Below are positions 2,927 through 18,786 of a stretch of 24,000 nucleotides of DNA, piece after piece. Numbering within the stretch: position 1 is the stretch's first letter; each line of letters starts with the position of its first letter. Both the position numbers and the translations under genes were made by a program. The notes under the pieces were generated by a model, which was given only the letters and a program-made list of their open reading frames with translations, had not been told where the DNA came from and made no database searches. This DNA comes from Methanobacterium alkalithermotolerans (GTDB lineage: Archaea > Methanobacteriota > Methanobacteria > Methanobacteriales > Methanobacteriaceae), in assembly GCF_018141185.1 (NCBI RefSeq), contig NZ_CP058560.1, forward strand, positions 903,447 through 927,446. The letters run 5' to 3'.

Positions 2927-3646
2927 TTAAATACCAAATAAATTATTTATATCAGATAACTTTCCAGTAATAAAATCAGGAGGAATAGGGAAGAGATAGG
3001 CCAGTGTTAAAAATAGTGTTAAGGCGATTACCACAAATAATACTATTTTTTTATCCTCATTTACCGGGTAAAAGTAAGTCAGTGCCAGTCCACCAATTAA
3101 AAACCCCGCGATCATTAAGATTGCATAATAGTTCTCAGGATTATCCTGAGTAAATGTTTCATTTAAGGGTGTTAAACTAACTAAGTCTGTTTCAACTATC
3201 AAACGTTCCCGGGCAGAGCCTATAGGATGACAAGTAATTAAAAATAATTTTTCACCCTGTTCCACTGATATTCGGTAGGAAGCCGGGACAATAAAGGTAT
3301 TGTTAACCCTATATTCACCTTTTCCCACCCCCGGCCATTCCAGGAAAACAGAATCACCTGCTTTTAATCCATCCAATTTAAAAAAAGGTGATCCATACAT
3401 GGTACGATGTCCAAAAAGAATAACAGTTCCATTTCCAGGTTTCATGGATTGAGGTTCATGATATACACCATAGGAAACAGATTTATTATTAATATTTTGA
3501 GTAACATCAATAGAGGGCATTACCACAACCGCAGTGGTGGTATTGTTTTCCATTACAATTTGGGATGCATAAAAACTTACATCAATTAAAAAATAAAGGG
3601 ATATGATCAACATTCCCACTACAATAAAAAAGGTAGAGATTCGCAT
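2927..3646 (-). CDS. sortase-family transpeptidase homologue, membrane anchored
   Basis: 239-aa ORF. It has an N-terminal signal-anchor helix. The catalytic-triad-like motifs are TVILFGHR (His80), FLITCHP (Cys139, TLxTC-like) and RLIVE (Arg148), in the spacing seen in class C/D/E sortases. Two additional C-terminal transmembrane helices are present. There is no Shine-Dalgarno; a TATA-like box sits about 27 nt upstream of the ATG. Confidence 0.7.
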   Translation of the reverse strand: MRISTFFIVVGMLIISLYFLIDVSFYASQIVMENNTTTAVVVMPSIDVTQNINNKSVSYGVYHEPQSMKPGNGTVILFGHRTMYGSPFFKLDGLKAGDSVFLEWPGVGKGEYRVNNTFIVPASYRISVEQGEKLFLITCHPIGSARERLIVETDLVSLTPLNETFTQDNPENYYAILMIAGFLIGGLALTYFYPVNEDKKIVLFVVIALTLFLTLAYLFPIPPDFITGKLSDINNLFGI

Positions 3647-3673
3647 AGGTTATTTACTCATTAATTCTTCTGA

Positions 3674-3681
3674 AATATAAA
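3674..3681 (-). promoter_or_regulatory. candidate archaeal TATA box for the sortase gene (leaderless or near-leaderless mRNA)
   Basis: On the minus strand this reads TTTATATT. It ends 27 nt upstream of the sortase ATG (3646), which lacks a ribosome-binding site. That spacing fits a transcription start at or just before the start codon. Confidence 0.35.
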
Positions 3682-3695
3682 TATTTTTAAATTTT

Positions 3696-3729
3696 AAAAA
3701 AAGGATCAAGGGGTTAAAATAAAAACCCC
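3696..3729 (-). terminator. hairpin plus oligo-U terminator or attenuator after the surface-protein gene
   Basis: The minus strand reads GGGGTT-TTTATTTT-AACCCC (perfect 6-bp GC-rich stem), then TTGATCC, then TTTTTTT. It begins 3 nt after the stop codon at 3733..3735. Confidence 0.55.
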
Positions 3730-3732
3730 GGT

Positions 3733-4650
3733 TTAATGGCGCATAAACTTAGCGTAAACTACACCGGCACCAGCTACTAATGCACCTACTATAAATAATC
3801 CATAGGGAACACCAGTATCTCTGGTAGGAACTGAAGTAGTATTTTCCTGAGCACCTGCTGTTGGAATAGAACTGGAACGCCCCTGGGTGGCGCTGGATGA
3901 GCTTCTACCCATTGGCCATTCATAGACGTAGTTGAATACTCGAGAAGCACCTGGTTCCATTACTACATCCCAGGAAGCAATTTGAGTATCAACCGCAAGT
4001 TCGTCATCTAAGAATGTCACCCGTGGATTACTGTGTGTTAATTTAGAGTCAACAGGGACAATAGGTGCTCTTACTATACCGGATACCCTGGTGGAGTCCA
4101 CATTGGTTAGGCGGAAGCTGAAGTTTCCTTTCCACCGTAATATATCCAGATTAGGATTTAAAATTTCCAGTTCATTAGGAACAAACCAGGAAGCCATAAG
4201 GCCAGGTTCTGGTACCAGTGGCCAGTATACACCATCATCGGAATCCGCCCTTATAATATACGAGGGTATTTGTCCCATTTGTCCCACAGCAGATAGCTTG
4301 AAACAAACAGATTTAGTTTCCCCGGGCTGAATCTTCCAACCATAATCTCCTCCCAATTCAGGATATCGAGATTTGACCATTTTTACTGCAGCAGGGCTGG
4401 TCCAGTCAATAACCCAGAGTATGGTATTGTTTTCTGCTTCAGCCAGACTACCCTGATATGCCTGACTTATTTTAAAGTATTGCACATGATCATTGTTATT
4501 TTTAATTGTTACCAATATTTCCGCGGATAAATCCGAAAATTTATAGCTGGTAGCCTCTGGATTTTCCACTACCCAAACTTCTGATCCCCAGGACATTCCG
4601 GCAAAAGCCAGTATCAATATTAAAACGATGCAAATTTTATCCACTTTCAT
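3733..4650 (-). CDS. secreted two-domain beta-sandwich-like surface protein with a C-terminal hydrophobic anchor and basic tail (candidate sortase substrate)
   Basis: The start is refined from the track's 4710 to the ATG at 4650, which has a strong AAGGGGGA Shine-Dalgarno 6 nt upstream. Signal peptide MKVDKICIVLILILAFAGMSWG. Several N-x-S/T sequons. Ser-rich linker. The C-terminus is ...SSSIPTAGAQENTTSVPTRDTGVPYGLFIVGALVAGAGVVYAKFMRH. Confidence 0.7.
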   Translation of the reverse strand: MKVDKICIVLILILAFAGMSWGSEVWVVENPEATSYKFSDLSAEILVTIKNNNDHVQYFKISQAYQGSLAEAENNTILWVIDWTSPAAVKMVKSRYPELGGDYGWKIQPGETKSVCFKLSAVGQMGQIPSYIIRADSDDGVYWPLVPEPGLMASWFVPNELEILNPNLDILRWKGNFSFRLTNVDSTRVSGIVRAPIVPVDSKLTHSNPRVTFLDDELAVDTQIASWDVVMEPGASRVFNYVYEWPMGRSSSSATQGRSSSIPTAGAQENTTSVPTRDTGVPYGLFIVGALVAGAGVVYAKFMRH

Positions 4651-4706: not shown

Positions 4707-6107
4707 TCAACCATATATGGTTCTTAATTCATTAATCATCCAATTTGGAGCTTGCTGAGTAGGAACTGTTAGAATTATGCTGTCCATATTCTGTATTAAG
4801 AATAAAACATTTTCTCTAGGTACTTCCAGCAAGAGTAAGTACTGTGCATCCAGTTCACCAAGATTGGATGTTCTCTCAAAGTCAGATAACTTGATTCCAT
4901 AGTTTTGGAGTAAAGCCCTTGTTTCAGCTTCATTAAATCCTCCTGATGCAGCTGCCCTTAATAGTTGTTCCACATCAGCAGAAGATGTTTGTTCTCGTTG
5001 GCTTTGGGAAATCAGTTCATTAACTGAAAAACTCTGGCCACGGGTCACCCTGGCATCAATAGTTCCACTGTCTTTAGCCCTTAATATTGCCAGAACAGTA
5101 GCTCCACTAATTTGAGGAGTTGAACTTTCAGGTGTCTGAGTTGTTTGAGCTGGTTGTGCTTCTTCTCCCTCTTCTGTTTCATTTTGTTCAGGTTGTGCTT
5201 GTTGTTCCTGCTCCGGAGAAACCCTCAGATAAACATCCACCATATTACCCACACTAATTAGGCCCCCTGCCGCCTGTAATCGAGATATAATTATGGGTAC
5301 TGCCACGGTATCCGGGGTTTGAATTTCCATATTAGCCAGAACAGTAGCATCTGCCTGGGAAATAAATCTTTGGGCATCACTGGCCTTCATGATTACATTT
5401 TTCTGAGAACCAGAAGTATCCTGTTCAGGTGCAGACGGATCAGTGGAATAAACAATCATTACCCTGTCAAAAGGATCTTTTTTGCTATTGAGTTGCTGGT
5501 TTTGATATGTTCGCCAGGAATTAGTAGCCGGGCCAATCACATCCACCGACAGTACCTGCTCAGGAGTTACTCCTGCATCAATATCAGCTAGAAGAGCCTG
5601 TTTTTCAGGGTCTACAGCTAATGGACCTTTAAAATAGGCATTAATTTCATTTAATTTGGTTGCCTTAGCATCCTGCAACGTTTCTTGATAAGGAGCATAA
5701 ACAAGGAAATAATAACCAGAAGCTACCAGTATTATCAAAATCAGACCGAAAACCGCCGCACCAATAATCGTCCTTTGATCATCATCATCGCCAGGCAATT
5801 TTCTTCCGAAAGGACCCCCACCAGAAGCAGCTTTGGCCCCTATAGGCTTTTTAGCTTTATCTTTAGGTTTAAGCCTGATTTTTTCATCGCCCTTAGGCTT
5901 GATTCTAGGTTTAGGCATTGGTCGAGCTTTCTTAACTGGACCCCTCGAAGGTTTTTCTTCACTCTTATTCGCTTTTCCAGATATCTTACCAACCAGATCT
6001 TGGATTTTGCCTCCCACGTCAGACGATTCTTTCTCGCCGTTTTTCCTCAGATCTGGAGGAGAATCTTTATTGTTTTTCTTTTTACTACCTTTCAACTTAT
6101 CTAACAT
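4707..6107 (-). CDS. single-pass membrane protein: Lys/Pro-rich cytoplasmic N-terminal region, one transmembrane helix, extracellular domain with an acidic Q/E-rich insert (weak CpaB/RcpC-like pattern)
   Basis: Long ORF. The ATG at 6107 is preferred over the GTG at 6116. About 120 aa of K/P-rich low complexity precede the transmembrane segment IIGAAVFGLILIILVASGYYFLVY. The external region contains VAVPIIISRLQAAGGLISVGNMVDVYLRV....ATVLAILRAKDSG. The start overlaps the pssA stop (6097..6099). Confidence 0.7.
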   Translation of the reverse strand: MLDKLKGSKKKNNKDSPPDLRKNGEKESSDVGGKIQDLVGKISGKANKSEEKPSRGPVKKARPMPKPRIKPKGDEKIRLKPKDKAKKPIGAKAASGGGPFGRKLPGDDDDQRTIIGAAVFGLILIILVASGYYFLVYAPYQETLQDAKATKLNEINAYFKGPLAVDPEKQALLADIDAGVTPEQVLSVDVIGPATNSWRTYQNQQLNSKKDPFDRVMIVYSTDPSAPEQDTSGSQKNVIMKASDAQRFISQADATVLANMEIQTPDTVAVPIIISRLQAAGGLISVGNMVDVYLRVSPEQEQQAQPEQNETEEGEEAQPAQTTQTPESSTPQISGATVLAILRAKDSGTIDARVTRGQSFSVNELISQSQREQTSSADVEQLLRAAASGGFNEAETRALLQNYGIKLSDFERTSNLGELDAQYLLLLEVPRENVLFLIQNMDSIILTVPTQQAPNWMINELRTIYG

Positions 6108-6825
6108 GTGGACCACTTCTTAGATTCGTGAATAAGGCCAAAATGGGCATAAATATTATGAAAGTCATGGTTAGGATGAATAAAATCATGGCCGGGATAT
6201 TCATCAAACTTATTTGAATGTTTTGAGGCAATGAAACTGTCAGTATTAATATTAAAGACAGTCCTGCAGTTTTAATGCTTCTTATTTTAGGATACTCTAG
6301 GGTACTAATCATTAATAAGGACACGATAGTCATTATCAGGAGAGCTATGTCCTCCCTAAACATACCGGTAAGATAAAATGATGCCAGCACCACAGCAGTA
6401 ATAGGTATGGGCAATCCCACAAATTTATCTTGTGGAGTTCCAATTTGTGAAATGACATTGAACCTTGAAAGCCTCAATATACCACATATTACTATTAAGA
6501 GACTTACTAATATATTAATGTATCGTATATCATATGATAAAGTGGCTGAATACAAAAAGATTCCCGGCGCAACACCAAAGGATATAACATCACATAATGA
6601 ATCCATATTTTTTCCAAATCCTAATTTATCATCCCTATTTATTTTTCGTGCCACCCATCCATCAATAGAATCAAAAATTACTGCAATTAATATTAATTGA
6701 GCAGAAATTATTAAATAACCGTCCATGGCCATTATAATAGCCATAAATCCGAATACAGCATTAAAAATGGAGAAAAGGTCTGGAAGAGAAAAGTAATCTT
6801 TTATTCGCATAGTTTCTAGACTCAT
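6097..6825 (-). CDS. pssA: CDP-alcohol phosphatidyltransferase, probable archaetidylserine synthase
   Basis: 242-aa polytopic membrane ORF with the CDP-alcohol phosphatidyltransferase motif DSIDGWVARK(x8)GKNMDSLCDVISFG, i.e. D-G-x2-A-R...G-x3-D-x3-D. Serine specificity is inferred from the adjacent psd gene. Confidence 0.8.
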   Translation of the reverse strand: MSLETMRIKDYFSLPDLFSIFNAVFGFMAIIMAMDGYLIISAQLILIAVIFDSIDGWVARKINRDDKLGFGKNMDSLCDVISFGVAPGIFLYSATLSYDIRYINILVSLLIVICGILRLSRFNVISQIGTPQDKFVGLPIPITAVVLASFYLTGMFREDIALLIMTIVSLLMISTLEYPKIRSIKTAGLSLILILTVSLPQNIQISLMNIPAMILFILTMTFIIFMPILALFTNLRSGPHVR

Positions 6826-7000: not shown

Positions 7001-7660
7001 TCACTTTAAAGAGGCCATAACTGTTTCTCCAGCCTTGGGTTTATCTCCTACTTCTACCATTACCTTAAATTTTTCATAGGGTACTATTAAATCAACACGG
7101 GATCCAAACCGGATCATGCCTAAACGACTCCCTATATTTACCTCATCCCCCACCTGAACATATTGGACAATCCTGCGAGCAACAAAACCGGCTATCTGAA
7201 TAACCCCTATTTTCCCATATTCAGACTCAATAACAATCAGATTTTTTTCATTTTCGGTCTTCACATTACCAAAGGCCACCTTGAATTTTCCCGGGCAATA
7301 TTTAGTTTTAACCACCTGGCCTGATACAGGAGCACGATTAACATGAACATCAAAAGGAGACATGAAGGTGCTAATTAGAATTCCTTTTTCGTTTTTTTCC
7401 AGAACATACTCCATTAAAGGGTAATCATAATCCACCTGTTCTATACGATCAATTTTGCCCTTTAAAATTCTGCCATCTGCTGCTGCCACCACAATTCCTT
7501 TATCCATTGGGGAATTTCTATTTGGATCTCTAAAAAATTGCATTAAAAATGCTATAAAAGAAAAAAGAAGAAAACTTATTATAAAATAACCAAAAAGGAA
7601 TGGTAAAAGTGCTAGGGTAAATAGTATACTTGCTTTTTTGAAAGTTCCTTTGACGAACAT
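7001..7660 (-). CDS. psd: phosphatidylserine (archaetidylserine) decarboxylase proenzyme
   Basis: The ATG at 7660 has an AGGTG Shine-Dalgarno 5 nt upstream; the track start at 7666 is a GTG. There is an N-terminal transmembrane segment. The GMIRFGSRVDLIVP motif carries the G-S self-cleavage (pyruvoyl-forming) site near the C-terminus. Confidence 0.8.
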   Translation of the reverse strand: MFVKGTFKKASILFTLALLPFLFGYFIISFLLFSFIAFLMQFFRDPNRNSPMDKGIVVAAADGRILKGKIDRIEQVDYDYPLMEYVLEKNEKGILISTFMSPFDVHVNRAPVSGQVVKTKYCPGKFKVAFGNVKTENEKNLIVIESEYGKIGVIQIAGFVARRIVQYVQVGDEVNIGSRLGMIRFGSRVDLIVPYEKFKVMVEVGDKPKAGETVMASLK

Positions 7661-8243
7661 GTGCACACCTGGTGATTAAGAGAATATTAATGAAGTAATT
7701 TTTTTAATTAAATTTATAGATTATTTAAGTAGATAATGATTATTTTCTATTAGCACCTTGCGATTGATAATAGCATATAAAGTATATAATCAGTTATGTG
7801 CATTACCGCCTATTTAATTTCCCTTGAAATTAGTATGATATATAATAATAGATAAATTAATTATATATTTCAGCATTGCCTTGAAATTTATTAATATAGA
7901 TAAAAATAGATTTAATAAATCTTATTATAATTACGTTTTTTATATTTTAAAATAAATAAGGGCATTATAACTAGATATAAAGACCTGAGAGGAAATATAT
8001 GAAATTTTATTTTAATAGGTGTGGGAACATATTAATTAATGAAAAGTTTATATTAGCACATATAATATATAATCCAGAATCAATTAAATATTTGGTTGAT
8101 AATTAATGGAAAAAAGAAAAATGGTTAGTTGGGATTACATATAAACATCTATAAATTAATATTTTATAAAATGTTTTTTAAAGTAATTTAAAATGAGTAT
8201 TTTTTTAAATTTATAACTATTACCCTCCTGCGAAGTGGTATTA

Positions 8244-8873
8244 ATGATAGAAAGTAAAATAAAAGTTCTTAGAAAGGCAGCACAAGTATCTACTGCCCAG
8301 GATTCAGATAAAATATGGTGCGTTATTGCCGGTAATGAAGAAATGGTTAATAATGTAGCATATGCCGCAATATCTGCTAAAGAACGAGTTAAAATAGTTT
8401 TTCGAGAGCATGTTAATTTAAAAGAGTCATTTGTTCGAAAAAAATTTGATTTTATCATGTTACATGGCGACAGCAACATTATAAGAGAATTGAGTTTGAT
8501 TTGTAAAGAAAATGGTGGAGCTTATCTAAAAATAGCCCCATATTACGTTAAAAATGAATCAAATCTAATATTGCTGGTGGCACCAGATAATGCTATAAAA
8601 AAATTTGCAGGAGATGCTGAAAAAGATAATATTAAATTTTCATTTATACTGGAAGATAAAACGACTGGTTTTATAGAAACTGATGTTTCCATAACCAATC
8701 ACCTTCCTAAGCTACTGCGTGATGTGATAGATCCCTTATTCAAACTGACAGATATGGTTCTGTCAACCATACTCATCTCAACTGATGAGCAGTACATTAA
8801 ACAGATAAAAAAAGTTGCTAATTCTAACCAGATATTCGTTGTAGAGTTCAAAGAAATTATTGAGGAGGAGTAA
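8244..8873 (+). CDS. soluble protein of unknown function, translationally coupled to mreB
   Basis: ORF of about 209 aa with no transmembrane segment and no motif I recognise. The ATG at 8244 is preferred over the GTG at 8235. A TATA-like TTTATAA at 8210..8216 is spaced for a near-leaderless transcript. The final codons GAG GAG GAG form the Shine-Dalgarno for the next gene. Confidence 0.6.
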   Translation: MIESKIKVLRKAAQVSTAQDSDKIWCVIAGNEEMVNNVAYAAISAKERVKIVFREHVNLKESFVRKKFDFIMLHGDSNIIRELSLICKENGGAYLKIAPYYVKNESNLILLVAPDNAIKKFAGDAEKDNIKFSFILEDKTTGFIETDVSITNHLPKLLRDVIDPLFKLTDMVLSTILISTDEQYIKQIKKVANSNQIFVVEFKEIIEEE

Positions 8874-8874
8874 T

Positions 8875-9948
8875 ATGTTCTCATTTGGAAAAAAGAAGAA
8901 TAATGAAGAAGTAAGAAAAAAATCGCTTAATGATACTTTAGGAATTGATTTAGGTACTTTAAACACCGTGGTGGCCAAGCCATCAGGGGATAAATTTGAT
9001 TTATATAAAATTCCATCAGTAGTAGCCGTGAAAAAAGAAGACCCGTCCTATGTTCTGGCTGTAGGTGAAGAAGCAAAGATGATGCTGGGCAGAACTCCAG
9101 AAGACATAGTGGCCGTAAGACCACTACGAAAAGGAGTTATTGAGAGCGTAGCTCAGGCAGAAGCCTTGCTGGTCTATTCAATTGAACTGGGATCAGGAGA
9201 AGACAACACAAGTATTGACCGTATAGTAATTGGAATACCCGGAGATGCTTCTGAAGTAGAAAGAAATGCTGTAGAAGAAATTGGTAGAAAAGCTGGAGCC
9301 AGTTATGTACTGGTAATCAGTGAAGGACTTTCAGCTGCTATTGGTGCAGGTTTACCTATTGCAGAAGCTACCGGAACTATGGTTATTGATATTGGGGCCG
9401 GTTCCAGTGATATAGTTGTAATTTCACTAGGGGGAATCACCGACATAGAAACCATCCGCTGGGGTGGAGACGATATTGATGACAATATCGTGGACCAGGT
9501 AAAGGAAAAGTATGAAGTGGAGATAGGTATTCACGAAGCAGAAAAAGCCAAAATAGGGGTGGGAATGGTACATTCCAATATAGATATGGAACTGGATAAA
9601 ACTACAGTTATAGGAAAGTGCATGAAAACCAATAAGCCTAAGGAAGTAGAGATTGACTCCAATATGGTGGCAAATGCTGCAGAGCCAATAGTAGTAAAAA
9701 TTGTTGAAGCATTAGCGGTAGTCCTTGAAAGACTATCCCCTGAATTAATATCCGGAGTATACCAAAAAACGGTGGTTGTAGGTGGAACTTCACAATTAAA
9801 AGGCCTTAAAGAAAGGATTTATGAAGAAGTGGGAATTCCAGTAGAAATATCTGATGACCCTATGACAGTAGTGGCTAAAGGAGCAGCCATTGTAGCTGCA
9901 GAACCCCGTGCATTAGAACCTGAAGTGCGATTGAAAGCCATGAAATAA
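8875..9948 (+). CDS. mreB: actin-fold ATPase, MreB-like rod-shape protein
   Basis: The start is refined to the ATG at 8875; the track's 8860 is a TTG. A GAGGAGGAG Shine-Dalgarno lies upstream, and the upstream stop TAA (8871..8873) is 1 nt before the ATG. Actin/Hsp70-fold motifs: LGIDLGTLNTVVA (phosphate 1), MVIDIGAGSSDIVV (phosphate 2), VVVGGTSQLKGL (adenosine). The size fits MreB. A basic N-terminal extension MFSFGKKKNNEEVRKK is present. Confidence 0.8.
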   Translation: MFSFGKKKNNEEVRKKSLNDTLGIDLGTLNTVVAKPSGDKFDLYKIPSVVAVKKEDPSYVLAVGEEAKMMLGRTPEDIVAVRPLRKGVIESVAQAEALLVYSIELGSGEDNTSIDRIVIGIPGDASEVERNAVEEIGRKAGASYVLVISEGLSAAIGAGLPIAEATGTMVIDIGAGSSDIVVISLGGITDIETIRWGGDDIDDNIVDQVKEKYEVEIGIHEAEKAKIGVGMVHSNIDMELDKTTVIGKCMKTNKPKEVEIDSNMVANAAEPIVVKIVEALAVVLERLSPELISGVYQKTVVVGGTSQLKGLKERIYEEVGIPVEISDDPMTVVAKGAAIVAAEPRALEPEVRLKAMK

Positions 9949-10883: not shown

Positions 10884-11723
10884 ATGATTCTGGATTTTTT
10901 TACCAATACACTGGGAACTATCCTGGAAATGTTTAAAAGTGGAGGCATAATCACCTACCTCATTGCTATAGTAGGTATATATGGTGTATTTACCTCACTG
11001 GAAAAAATTGTTTATTTAAAAAAAATATCAAGAGTAAATACTGCTCAGATAATTGGAACCGTTAATGATTCTATGGAAAAAGGAGGGTCACTTGAGGCAC
11101 TAAGAGCCATCGGCCAATTCCAGAACCCTATATCCAAGATTATTTCTGAAGCCCTTAAAATTGGATACCGGAATAAGGGTGAAGTGGAAGATGCTATGGA
11201 AAGGGTATTCATCGTGGAAATGGGTAGGATGACCAAGGGCATGGAAACCCTGAAAACCATTATTGAAATAGCTCCCCTGATGGGTTTGATTGGTACAGTT
11301 ATTGGTATGTTTTATACCTTCCGGGAAATTGGAATGAGTGCCGAACCTGCTGCCCTGGCTGAAGGGATTTACATCGCATTAATAACCACCATTATGGGTT
11401 TAAGTGTAGCCATTGTACTGGTACCCTTCTATTCATATATAAAAAGCCATATTGATAAAGAAATGGACAGCATTGAACTTGCCAAAAAAATGACTAACTG
11501 GAGCTATGCTGTAATGAAAATAAAGGTGGATGCAGATCTTGAAGAGGCTATAGAGGCCTTACAGGTATCAGAAGGGATTGTTAATGTAAAAAAGATAAAT
11601 GATCCTGAGGCTAATATCTGGGTGGCCTTCAAACCCAGTATGCTGGAAAAGAGTATTAACAATATCATACTGGAAAAATGCAATACTAATGCCGAAATTG
11701 TGATGAGTAAACTCAAGCAGTAA
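10884..11723 (+). CDS. MotA/TolQ/ExbB-family proton-channel protein with an extra C-terminal soluble domain
   Basis: 279-aa ORF with three transmembrane helices. The family signature is IEIAPLMGLIGTVIGM followed by ALITTIMGLSVAI. About 75 additional C-terminal residues (11496..11720) show an alternating beta/alpha pattern. Confidence 0.8.
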   Translation: MILDFFTNTLGTILEMFKSGGIITYLIAIVGIYGVFTSLEKIVYLKKISRVNTAQIIGTVNDSMEKGGSLEALRAIGQFQNPISKIISEALKIGYRNKGEVEDAMERVFIVEMGRMTKGMETLKTIIEIAPLMGLIGTVIGMFYTFREIGMSAEPAALAEGIYIALITTIMGLSVAIVLVPFYSYIKSHIDKEMDSIELAKKMTNWSYAVMKIKVDADLEEAIEALQVSEGIVNVKKINDPEANIWVAFKPSMLEKSINNIILEKCNTNAEIVMSKLKQ

Positions 11724-11787
11724 AACATCCACTATCCCGGCATTAAAATAGAAACTTTCCTAAAATAAATAAAAAAGGGTTTTTTAC

Positions 11788-12183
11788 ATGACTATGGATA
11801 TACAAAAATACCGTAATCAACTAAACAGTAGTAGCCCTAAATTTAATATGGTTCCTTTCATTGACATTCTTTTTACCATATTAATCTTTTTAGTGGTTAC
11901 CAGTACATTTCAGGTTGCGGATCAATCAGCGGCAGTTACCGGTAAACCAGAAATAGATGAAAATGCAGGTCCATCTGAATATTATTTAATACCGGTGGCG
12001 GGTTTAAGAGAAGTACTAGTTAATGGGGAAGATATGTCCCGTTTTATTAGAAATAGTGCGATTGCAGTGCATACCCGGGTGATTGATGAAGGTGAGCTTA
12101 TTATAAAACCCAAGGAGGGTAAAATAATAATTACATCCCCACCAGACCTGCCTACAAATAAAGCAGTTAAATCTCCAGAATAG
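11788..12183 (+). CDS. ExbD/TolR-family protein
   Basis: 131-aa ORF. The N-terminal FNMVPFIDILFTILIFLVVTSTF single transmembrane helix is typical of ExbD/TolR. It lies 64 nt downstream of the ExbB-like gene, with an AAGGG ribosome-binding site. Confidence 0.75.
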   Translation: MTMDIQKYRNQLNSSSPKFNMVPFIDILFTILIFLVVTSTFQVADQSAAVTGKPEIDENAGPSEYYLIPVAGLREVLVNGEDMSRFIRNSAIAVHTRVIDEGELIIKPKEGKIIITSPPDLPTNKAVKSPE

Positions 12184-18196: not shown

Positions 18197-18312
18197 ATTC
18201 TATTATTTATTTAATTTTCTAATCTTTTTCTTAAATTTATATATTTTAATAACCAAACTAAAAAAATCAATTAAATTTAATTATTTAAATCAAGATAATG
18301 GAGGATTTTTAT

Positions 18313-18786
18313 ATGGAATGGGAAGATGCACCATCACACGTATGTCGCGGAGGAGATAAAAGAGCACTTGCTTTTTGTTGTCCTCCTGTGAAACCTTGCC
18401 CTATATTACACGCTTTAGAAGATTCTAATCGTACACCACAGGAATATATAAAAATAAAAGAGGAATTCGGGAAAAAAACAGCATTGGGACAGGGAGAAGG
18501 AACCTGTTTCGGGTCTTTAGTCTGGTGTTGTAAACCATCTAAACCCTGCCCCTTAAGGGATATGGTTATGCGCCGAATTGACATGAGTACTGACCAATAC
18601 ATGAAACTGAAAAAAGAATTATCAGAAGAATTGGTAGGTAAAGATGATTATTCCGATGAAGAAAGTATTAAAGCCCTTTCAGATACATTTAATGTTTCAG
18701 AGGGAGAAGCAAGTAACATTCTAAAGGAATGTGGCAATGATTTAAGAACCGCCATGAAAGTCTTAAGAATGAAGAATCTGGAATAA
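18313..18786 (+). CDS. duplicated Cys-rich (C-x(6,10)-CC-x-P-x-KPCP) protein with a C-terminal UBA/NAC-like helical domain
   Basis: The ATG at 18313 has a GGAGG 8 nt upstream; the track's ATG at 18298 overlaps that Shine-Dalgarno. Two internal repeats are present: [33 protein letters not shown] and [34 protein letters not shown]. The tail [36 protein letters not shown] follows the UBA pattern of archaeal NAC. Confidence 0.7.

Follow-up and report, generated by a model that had tools for sequence, protein, structure and literature searches.

A three-helix sortase homologue and its candidate dedicated substrate with a non-LPXTG sorting signal in Methanobacterium alkalithermotolerans

Sortase homologues of pseudomurein-containing methanogens have been counted in genome papers since at least 2010-2011, and a study from 2025 placed the sortase gene together with DUF515, coiled-coil and MreB genes in 'cluster C' of the genes specific for pseudomurein archaea (PMC11915815). 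The authors of that study put the cluster to one side as being related to pili or the surface and probably unrelated to pseudomurein. Reviews in the searchable literature discuss archaeosortases alone as the archaeal C-terminal anchoring system, and in the same literature we found no experiment on an archaeal sortase and no substrate or reaction described for the sortases of pseudomurein methanogens. Here we describe a sortase gene and the adjacent gene of a 305-amino-acid (aa) surface protein with a sorting-type C-terminus, both located in a 24,000-nucleotide (nt) stretch of DNA from M. alkalithermotolerans (contig NZ_CP058560.1, positions 903,447 to 927,446; this whole stretch is the window, and all coordinates refer to it). 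The sortase and the gene cluster are already published; new are the candidate substrate, its signal and its coupling to the sortase. The searchable literature contains no mention of the 305-aa protein, of its signal or of a linkage of the archaetidylserine synthase and decarboxylase genes (PssA and PssD) to a sortase, and none was found for the Methanothermobacter thermautotrophicus locus tags of these genes. The genomes closest to the locus are from Methanobacterium and from Methanobacteriaceae metagenome-assembled genomes (95-100% identity), in agreement with the first-pass annotation of the window, which had taken its source to be a pseudomurein archaeon.

Both open reading frames are present on the minus strand where they had been placed, that of a 239-aa product at 2927..3646 and that of the 305-aa product at 3733..4650. 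The first-pass annotation had described the shorter product as a sortase homologue with a signal-anchor helix and two extra C-terminal transmembrane helices, and had proposed to verify this with a sortase profile and with a predicted structure. Both analyses confirmed the description. The product matches the Pfam family Sortase (PF04203, peptidase C60) with an E-value of 2.1e-18 and 66.7 bits (cut-off 26.6), over positions 11-125 of the 125 profile positions. In the HMMER alignment, His80 (motif LFGHRT, codon at 3407..3409), Cys139 (motif LITCHP, a TLxTC-type signature, codon at 3230..3232) and Arg148 (motif RERLIV, codon at 3203..3205), all encoded on the minus strand, fall on the catalytic residues of 8t28, a class C sortase. 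These three residues (the first two within GHRT and ITC) are invariant across 35 aligned orthologues with identities down to 41%, and they are also kept in all 138 locus-derived sortase sequences which we checked. The AlphaFold model, with a mean predicted local distance difference test (pLDDT) score of 76.6, shows a catalytic beta-barrel (residues ~28-170) between an N-terminal membrane anchor (helix 3-27) and the membrane helices 173-192 and 196-218, which are followed by a short tail helix (223-236) at the outer face. The top Foldseek matches of this model are exclusively sortases of the classes A, C, D and E, with a probability of 1.0 and a template modelling score of up to 0.66 (target-normalised). 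Judged by its sequence and its predicted structure, the 239-aa product is a genuine sortase homologue with the eight-stranded beta-barrel fold of sortases, belonging to the sortase-family cysteine transpeptidases.

Assignment to a described class was less straightforward. The NCBIfam models for the classes C, D and E gave 36-43 bits at cut-offs of 140-165; neither the pilus-specific class C model NF033745 (35.9 bits) nor the class E model NF033747 (40.4 bits) reached its cut-off of 160, and the 'class GN / marine' model TIGR03784 scored 30.5 bits against a cut-off of 158. By these models the protein fits no defined class among C, D, E and GN, while its public annotation is class E sortase. It does have the C-terminal membrane helices that are a class C trait, and in the orthologue alignment its residues 28-60 do not contain the DP[FWY] lid motif of class C. 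The charged residues Arg2 and, between helices 2 and 3, Lys199 and Lys200 are distributed such that we infer an extracellular location for both the catalytic domain and the C-terminal tail, with the barrel tethered to the membrane at both ends. A conserved YPVxED loop was considered as a lipid head-group site and rejected, since the Lys-Lys pair follows it and this loop between helices 2 and 3 should be cytoplasmic.

The 305-aa protein starts with the ATG at 4650 (MKVDKIC...) as in its orthologues, while the mechanically delimited open reading frame reaches back as far as the TTG at 4710. At E <= 0.001, 150 homologues of the protein were found; among the matches listed (120 of the 150), all are full-length or nearly so and none has a Pfam domain. 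The protein itself matches no Pfam or NCBIfam family at E <= 1, including the LPXTG models PF00746 and TIGR01167, none of the NCBIfam models for PGF, PEF or related C-termini recognises it, and the PDB contains no relative of it in either sequence or fold. Its AlphaFold model (pLDDT 82.5) consists of a Sec signal peptide (residues 1-22), two beta-sandwich domains (~36-245) with two nearly invariant lysines, Lys50 and Lys60 (the latter in YFKIS), and a terminal helix (284-304) which ends in KFMRH. Between the domains and this helix there is a Ser/Thr-rich linker, disordered over residues 250-282 (pLDDT <50), which comprises a stalk (250-272) and the beginning of the putative C-terminal sorting signal (273-305).

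A signal peptide and a tripartite, non-LPXTG C-terminus had been noted for this neighbour of the sortase, and this architecture of motif, hydrophobic helix and basic tail at the extreme end is conserved across 120 clusters of orthologues, which we aligned by anchoring them on an invariant Gly. The juxtamembrane motif S273-V-P-T-R-D-T-G-V-P282 (3805..3834, minus strand; the peptide stretch covering it is SVPTKETGVPYGLF) corresponds to the family consensus [ST]VP[TS]xxTG[VL]P, and is followed by the hydrophobic helix and a short basic tail from Y283 to H305 (3736..3804, minus strand). Of its seven central residues VPTRDTG (274-280), which the first-pass annotation had rightly picked out, V is found in 95, P in 102 and the first T in 87 of the 120 clusters; after two variable positions, T is found in 111 and G in all 120, as is a Pro two residues past this Gly. 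The consensus of the full signal is [ST]-V-P-[TS]-x-x-T-G-[VL]-P-[YF]-G-L(109)-F-V-V-G ... G(111) ... Y(116)-A-[KR]-F-x-R(105), where the numbers in brackets are counts among the 120 clusters. The helix is conserved in sequence and in length, with a Gly at +16 and a Tyr at +19, counted from the invariant Gly, and with A-[KR]-F-x-R as the ending, and exactly 24 residues follow the signal Gly in 98 clusters. The column entropy is 2.2-3.3 bits in the linker versus 0-1.3 bits in the motif, a degree of conservation which in this alignment is far beyond chance. The first-pass annotation had put forward a second motif, IPTAG (residues 262-266; 3853..3867, minus strand), and this part of its proposal did not hold: IPTAG is situated in the variable stalk and is weakly conserved (I in 34, P in 46 and T in 36 clusters). 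The predicted core of the signal is thus Thr-Gly-x-Pro, right at the start of the conserved helix. The LPXTG pentapeptide is not present in the protein, whose motif is VPxxxTG, and the family consensus contains no LAXTG, the substrate motif of class E sortases; what the neighbour of the sortase carries is VPTRDTG.

The signal was rarely found outside of this protein family. When 1.84 billion representative proteins were searched with a profile, 36 matches in total were obtained, nearly all of them full-length orthologues or fragments. The only protein with the signal and a different body was a stalk-only derivative of 118 aa with a family-like signal peptide. Two longer archaeal proteins have the N-terminal domains of the 305-aa protein without the signal. 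In line with this, a scan for the pattern in 2.16 Mb of related loci detected the signal solely in the gene directly upstream of the sortase. Among the genes identified in these loci, no candidate sorting enzyme other than the sortase was seen, the loci not having been scanned with archaeosortase models. The substrate family is, as far as these searches reach, tiny and confined to relatives of Methanobacterium and Methanothermobacter, and the sortase and the 305-aa protein look like a private single-substrate system.

The stalk-only derivative (P0275, from a JGI metagenome) appears as an intact small protein, in which a signal peptide is followed by EPTLSSPSDI repeats and the sorting signal, while the beta-sandwich domains are missing. 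A second stalk-only version, at L060:894-1172 (L numbers designate the loci of our sample), keeps the sorting signal and looks like a deletion remnant; the sortase of this locus retains the Pro-x-Pro motif described below.

For the analysis of gene order we used 80 species-level genomes and 80 metagenome contigs, a sample that does not extend to the loci of Methanopyrus and Methanothermus. The order PssD, PssA, DUF515, 305-aa gene, sortase, aldolase-family gene is nearly invariant in it. The expected linkage of the sortase and 305-aa genes in other genomes was found: of the 138 loci in which a sortase was matched over its full length, 119 have an intact 305-aa gene directly upstream of the sortase gene. 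In seven further loci it is truncated, frameshifted or cut by the contig edge, in 11 it is absent, and in one the situation is obscured by a contig edge. Loci without the gene include L005 and L012, with only 170-260 nt between DUF515 and sortase; the clade of L030, L051, L108, L104, L105 and L121; the low-GC, Methanobrevibacter-like L150 and L156; and L081, where PssA and the sortase abut directly, only 25 nt apart. The gaps between DUF515 and sortase in such loci are AT-rich spacers in which we found no small open reading frames. The low-GC loci were recovered by a metagenome scan with the DUF515 alignment; a metagenome search aimed at Methanobrevibacter-type loci, in which the L068 sortase served as query, found no relatives. 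In Methanobrevibacter smithii, DUF515 and sortase also seem to be adjacent, as the accession numbering in a published table suggests. Since the sortase is present in lineages whose loci lack the 305-aa gene, it is by all appearances older and more widespread than this substrate. Further, since it is kept there with an intact catalytic triad, it must, on this evidence, have other roles where the 305-aa gene is lacking.

L162 and L163 are also listed without the substrate gene and harbour the most divergent sortase. Past the aldolase-family gene, an adhesin-like gene of 643/721 aa is inserted at these two loci (L162:11418-13349, L163:3538-5703), the product of which has a signal peptide, GGAIxWY-type repeats differing in number between the contigs, and immunoglobulin-like C-terminal domains. 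It was considered as a classical sortase substrate and rejected, because despite its signal peptide it has no C-terminal membrane helix.

The loci without the 305-aa gene made it possible to compare sortases with and without their putative partner, a comparison which is not fully corrected for phylogeny. Sixty-five sortase positions are at least 90% conserved in the substrate-bearing group, and 53 of them, the catalytic triad among them, stay conserved in the substrate-less group. The positions that lose their conservation are above all Pro220 and Pro222, which in our sequence form Pro220-Ile-Pro222 (2981..2989, minus strand), in the loop at the outer-face exit of membrane helix 3. Pro220-x-Pro222 is present in all 119 sortases whose neighbouring substrate gene is intact, and likewise in all seven for which this gene is truncated, frameshifted or cut by a contig edge. 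It is broken in all 11 sortases from truly substrate-less loci, and L162 provides a twelfth case. The replacements vary by lineage: PVH, PID, QIP, TLP, QPL, PFD, PSI and PGS. The sortases of L005 and L012 are 70% and 67% identical to substrate-bearing sortases versus 57% to any other substrate-less one, and those of L030, L051, L108, L104, L105 and L121 fall within the substrate-bearing sequences of the tree. Taken at face value, the tree and these identities imply at least three independent losses in addition to three deep lineages. Such a repeated co-loss is hard to explain unless the Pro-x-Pro motif of the outer face serves the 305-aa protein, and the fact that the motif is kept solely where the neighbouring gene exists argues for the two genes being a functional pair. 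The signal, too, appears to have evolved together with the sortase. Judging from the distribution of charges and the predicted helices, Pro-x-Pro of the sortase and Thr-Gly-x-Pro of the substrate are both predicted to be at the outer surface of the membrane. At the level of single columns, mutual information with average-product correction between sortase and signal gave low, scattered scores for 94 non-identical pairs, in which some tails were mis-anchored.

Based on these observations we propose, with an even chance of being correct, that the 239-aa protein is a membrane-embedded three-helix sortase and the 305-aa protein its dedicated substrate, which is cleaved and probably anchored to a pseudomurein precursor. 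The sortase would belong to the single-copy sortase lineage of pseudomurein-walled methanogens. According to this model, the 305-aa protein would be exported by Sec and its signal peptide removed, after which the C-terminal helix would hold it in the membrane with the basic tail inside the cell. This helix could then dock on the membrane helices of the sortase, so that the motif VP[TS]xxTG-x-P would reach Cys139 of the surface-tethered catalytic domain. The cut would be made within the motif, by analogy with LPXT|G presumably after Thr279, and would leave a thioacyl intermediate. This would be resolved by a membrane-proximal amine, the most likely acceptor being a lipid-linked pseudomurein precursor, and finally the two beta-sandwich domains would be covalently anchored in the wall on a Ser/Thr stalk of about 30 residues. 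Helix docking, cleavage, cleavage site and acceptor are all what we infer from the features above. To our knowledge, all characterised housekeeping sortases (classes A, B, D and E) use wall precursors. Among archaea, this sortase group was reported only in pseudomurein-containing lineages (PMC11915815, Table S2), and for these two reasons we favour a pseudomurein precursor as the acceptor.

Several points weigh against this proposal. The signal is not LPXTG, and its Pro is five residues before the Gly instead of three. It abuts the helix directly, like the signals of exosortases and archaeosortases and unlike classical sortase signals. As several lineages retain the sortase while lacking the 305-aa gene, the 305-aa protein cannot, from what the sampled loci contain, be its only or ancestral function. 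Synteny across the family holds equally for the whole ~14-kb block bounded by the ExbD-like gene and the 2-oxoacid oxidoreductase genes, so that adjacency of the pair alone is weak evidence of a functional link. The co-loss of Pro-x-Pro would fit a stable non-covalent partnership in the membrane equally well, and the PssA and PssD genes upstream point to a lipid acceptor over pseudomurein.

The alternative that survives best is that no processing takes place: the 305-aa protein would simply be anchored by its helix, maybe in a stable complex with the sortase or with the DUF515 protein, and the substrates of the sortase would be encoded elsewhere in the genome. This would explain why a sortase with an intact triad is retained where the 305-aa gene is missing and why no sorting-signal model matches the motif, which is not LPXTG; block-wide synteny would account for the adjacency, and a high conservation of the helix sequence is expected from helix-helix packing in a stable complex. 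However, a plain anchor would not require so conserved a juxtamembrane motif. An invariant Thr-Gly-x-Pro exactly at the start of the helix and beside a variable stalk, together with the fixed length of helix and tail, is typical of processed sorting signals. Moreover, the signal survives on the stalk-only derivative without globular domains, and the change in Pro-x-Pro follows the presence of the substrate gene. We therefore consider this alternative unlikely, though to be taken seriously.

Somewhat less probable is lipid anchoring, in which the sortase would cleave the same signal and the amine of archaetidylethanolamine or archaetidylserine, provided by the adjacent PssA and PssD, would resolve the acyl intermediate and give a lipid-anchored surface protein. 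The location of the cleavage motif at the membrane surface is compatible with this. So is the gene run pssD, pssA, DUF515, substrate, sortase, in which the end of pssA overlaps the start of the DUF515 gene at 6097-6116, suggesting co-transcription. PssA is found near the sortase in every lineage sampled, up to the direct abutment in L081. In Methanosarcina, artA clusters with pssA and pssD, and ArtA-dependent processing in Haloferax needs both lipid genes, with archaetidylethanolamine as the proposed nucleophile (PMC7157517). In a proteomics study of M. thermautotrophicus, both the sortase and phosphatidylserine synthase were reported as raised after cold shock (PMC6528648), and the characterised archaetidylserine synthase MTH_1027 seems to belong to the same cluster of this species, as deduced from the accession order. 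On the other hand, PssA and PssD are probably housekeeping copies within a block that is conserved in order as a whole. The general models score best for both enzymes (307.8 bits for PssA), and the 'protein sorting system' models NF038086 and NF038088 gave only 104 bits for PssA and 133 bits for PssD, below their cut-offs of 200 and 240. Furthermore, the sampled part of L067, L072, L073, L075 and L079 and of the low-GC loci yielded no PssD, while the sortase stays there, and archaetidylethanolamine is widespread in archaea, while the sortase was reported in pseudomurein lineages only. If lipid anchoring were nevertheless true, for which we see a rather small chance, this would be the first true sortase to anchor its substrate to a lipid, namely to archaetidylethanolamine made by PssA and PssD. 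Methanobacteria with a bacterial-type sortase would then have reached the same solution as haloarchaea with the unrelated archaeosortase ArtA.

A class C-like sortase could also assemble fibres by joining 305-aa subunits head to tail, with a bond between the cleaved C-terminal Thr of one subunit and a conserved Lys of the following one; the CpaB-like DUF515 protein might serve as the platform. The best sequence matches among solved structures are indeed class C sortases (8t28, E 5.2e-07; 2w1k, E 4e-05), the C-terminal membrane helices and the adjacent substrate gene resemble class C, the two beta-sandwich domains and the nearly invariant Lys50 and Lys60 would suit such subunits, and a neighbouring gene has a weak match to CpaB/RcpC of Flp pili. 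We nevertheless judge fibre assembly very improbable, in view of the low class C score and the missing lid motif mentioned above, and because no solved pilin matches the fold of the substrate, the YPKN-type motif of pilins is missing, and the locus contains neither minor-pilin genes nor a second sortase. That the universal single-copy sortase of the pseudomurein lineage builds or cross-links the pseudomurein sacculus itself has, in our estimation, a minimal chance.

The pair is part of a minus-strand run of genes in the order PssD, PssA, DUF515, 305-aa gene, sortase, dihydroneopterin-aldolase-family gene and subunits of a 2-oxoacid:ferredoxin oxidoreductase. Its first gene at 7001..7666 encodes the archaetidylserine decarboxylase PssD (TIGR00164, 246.5 bits, cut-off 230), followed by the archaetidylserine synthase PssA at 6097..6825 (NF038087, cut-off 240) and by a 469-aa, DUF515 / CpaB-like bitopic membrane protein at 4707..6116 (Pfam DUF515, 70.5 bits, and a weak RcpC match). 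In the intergenic region between substrate and sortase (3647..3732, minus strand) we found a GC-rich hairpin (GGGGTT...AACCCC) with a T-run just past the stop codon of the substrate gene, and an AT-rich TTTATATT box ~30 nt ahead of the ATG of the sortase gene. They could represent a terminator and an archaeal TATA box, respectively, and their location between the two genes suggests that the substrate and the sortase are expressed at different levels.

No neighbour of the sortase is more constant than the DUF515 protein. Its gene lies beside that of the sortase in almost all loci, among them the low-GC loci without the substrate gene, and is absent from L081; the stretches TPDTVAVPI, ISGATVLAILRA and SNLGELDAQYL are very conserved. 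The low-GC, Methanobrevibacter-like versions (L150:6909-9188, L156:7017-9236 and L161:7044-9179) have a long N-terminal extension, resulting in 711-759 aa versus ~460 aa. Since its C-terminus, LTVPTQxAP, shares VPT with the signal, the DUF515 protein itself was considered as a substrate; it was rejected, because L068 has Ser in place of the Pro (TVST) and because the stretch is not followed by a C-terminal helix.

A plus-strand pair at 8235-9948 is transcribed divergently from the genes between PssD and the sortase and keeps synteny with them in nearly all loci; it is composed of a gene for a 212-aa protein without a family match, followed by an overlapping gene for a genuine MreB (PF06723, 343.7 bits). 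The same conserved block contains a MotA/ExbB-like and ExbD-like gene pair at 10884-12183 on the plus strand, and the MotA/TolQ/ExbB family is among the candidate groups kept in the 2025 pangenome study of pseudomurein archaea. Further away, at 18298-18786 on the plus strand, a 162-aa protein is encoded which has two Cys-rich modules (CC-x-P-x-KPCP...) and a C-terminal UBA/HTH-like tail, with sub-threshold Pfam matches only.

The identification of this pair is of interest for several reasons. What the locus offers is a candidate substrate, a non-LPXTG recognition motif and, in Pro220-x-Pro222, a sortase motif that tracks the substrate; a dedicated archaeal sortase-substrate pair, with a three-helix sortase and a non-canonical signal abutting the helix, would be new. 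Genetic tools now exist for Methanothermobacter, and covalent anchoring of surface proteins in pseudomurein archaea, as well as its acceptor, thereby become directly testable there. If pseudomurein is the acceptor, the system would be convergent with wall anchoring in Gram-positive bacteria, and if it is a lipid, with archaeosortase. Last but not least, surface proteins and sortases of methanogens were proposed as targets for methane mitigation (PMC2812497).

When the locus is set beside the described systems, the closest likeness of the enzyme is to the Gram-positive sortases of the classes C, D and E, such as SrtC2 of A. oris (8t28), SrtD of B. anthracis (2ln7) and SrtE of T. fusca and S. 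coelicolor. They share the fold, the His-Cys-Arg set, the N-terminal anchor and the signature (LITC corresponding to TLxTC), and their substrates also end with a motif, a helix and a basic tail. In contrast to them, the archaeal sortase has two extra C-terminal membrane helices and the outer tail helix, its substrate motif is VP[TS]xxTG-x-P set against the helix instead of LPXTG, LAXTG or LPNTA, and the host is an archaeon with pseudomurein instead of murein. In its organisation, with one sortase, one neighbouring substrate and a private, non-canonical signal, the locus resembles dedicated systems such as the proteobacterial class GN sortases (TIGR03784) with their adjacent substrates, or SrtB with IsdC. 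Unlike in these systems, the sortase predates its substrate and has a wider distribution; in addition, the substrate families are unrelated and the match to the GN model is weak.

With archaeosortase A, the PGF-CTERM proteins and PssA/PssD of Haloferax and Methanosarcina, the locus shares C-terminal sorting, a motif that abuts the helix, the linkage to pssA and pssD and a membrane-embedded enzyme. However, the enzyme described here is a true sortase, unrelated to archaeosortase in sequence and fold, its putative substrate matches no PGF or PEF model, and PssA is of the general and not of the sorting-system type. 'Cluster C' (PMC11915815), finally, is the same locus, with its MreB-like, coiled-coil, DUF515/CpaB-like and sortase genes; to this description we add the 305-aa gene, its signal and the PssA/PssD neighbours, which were not listed there.

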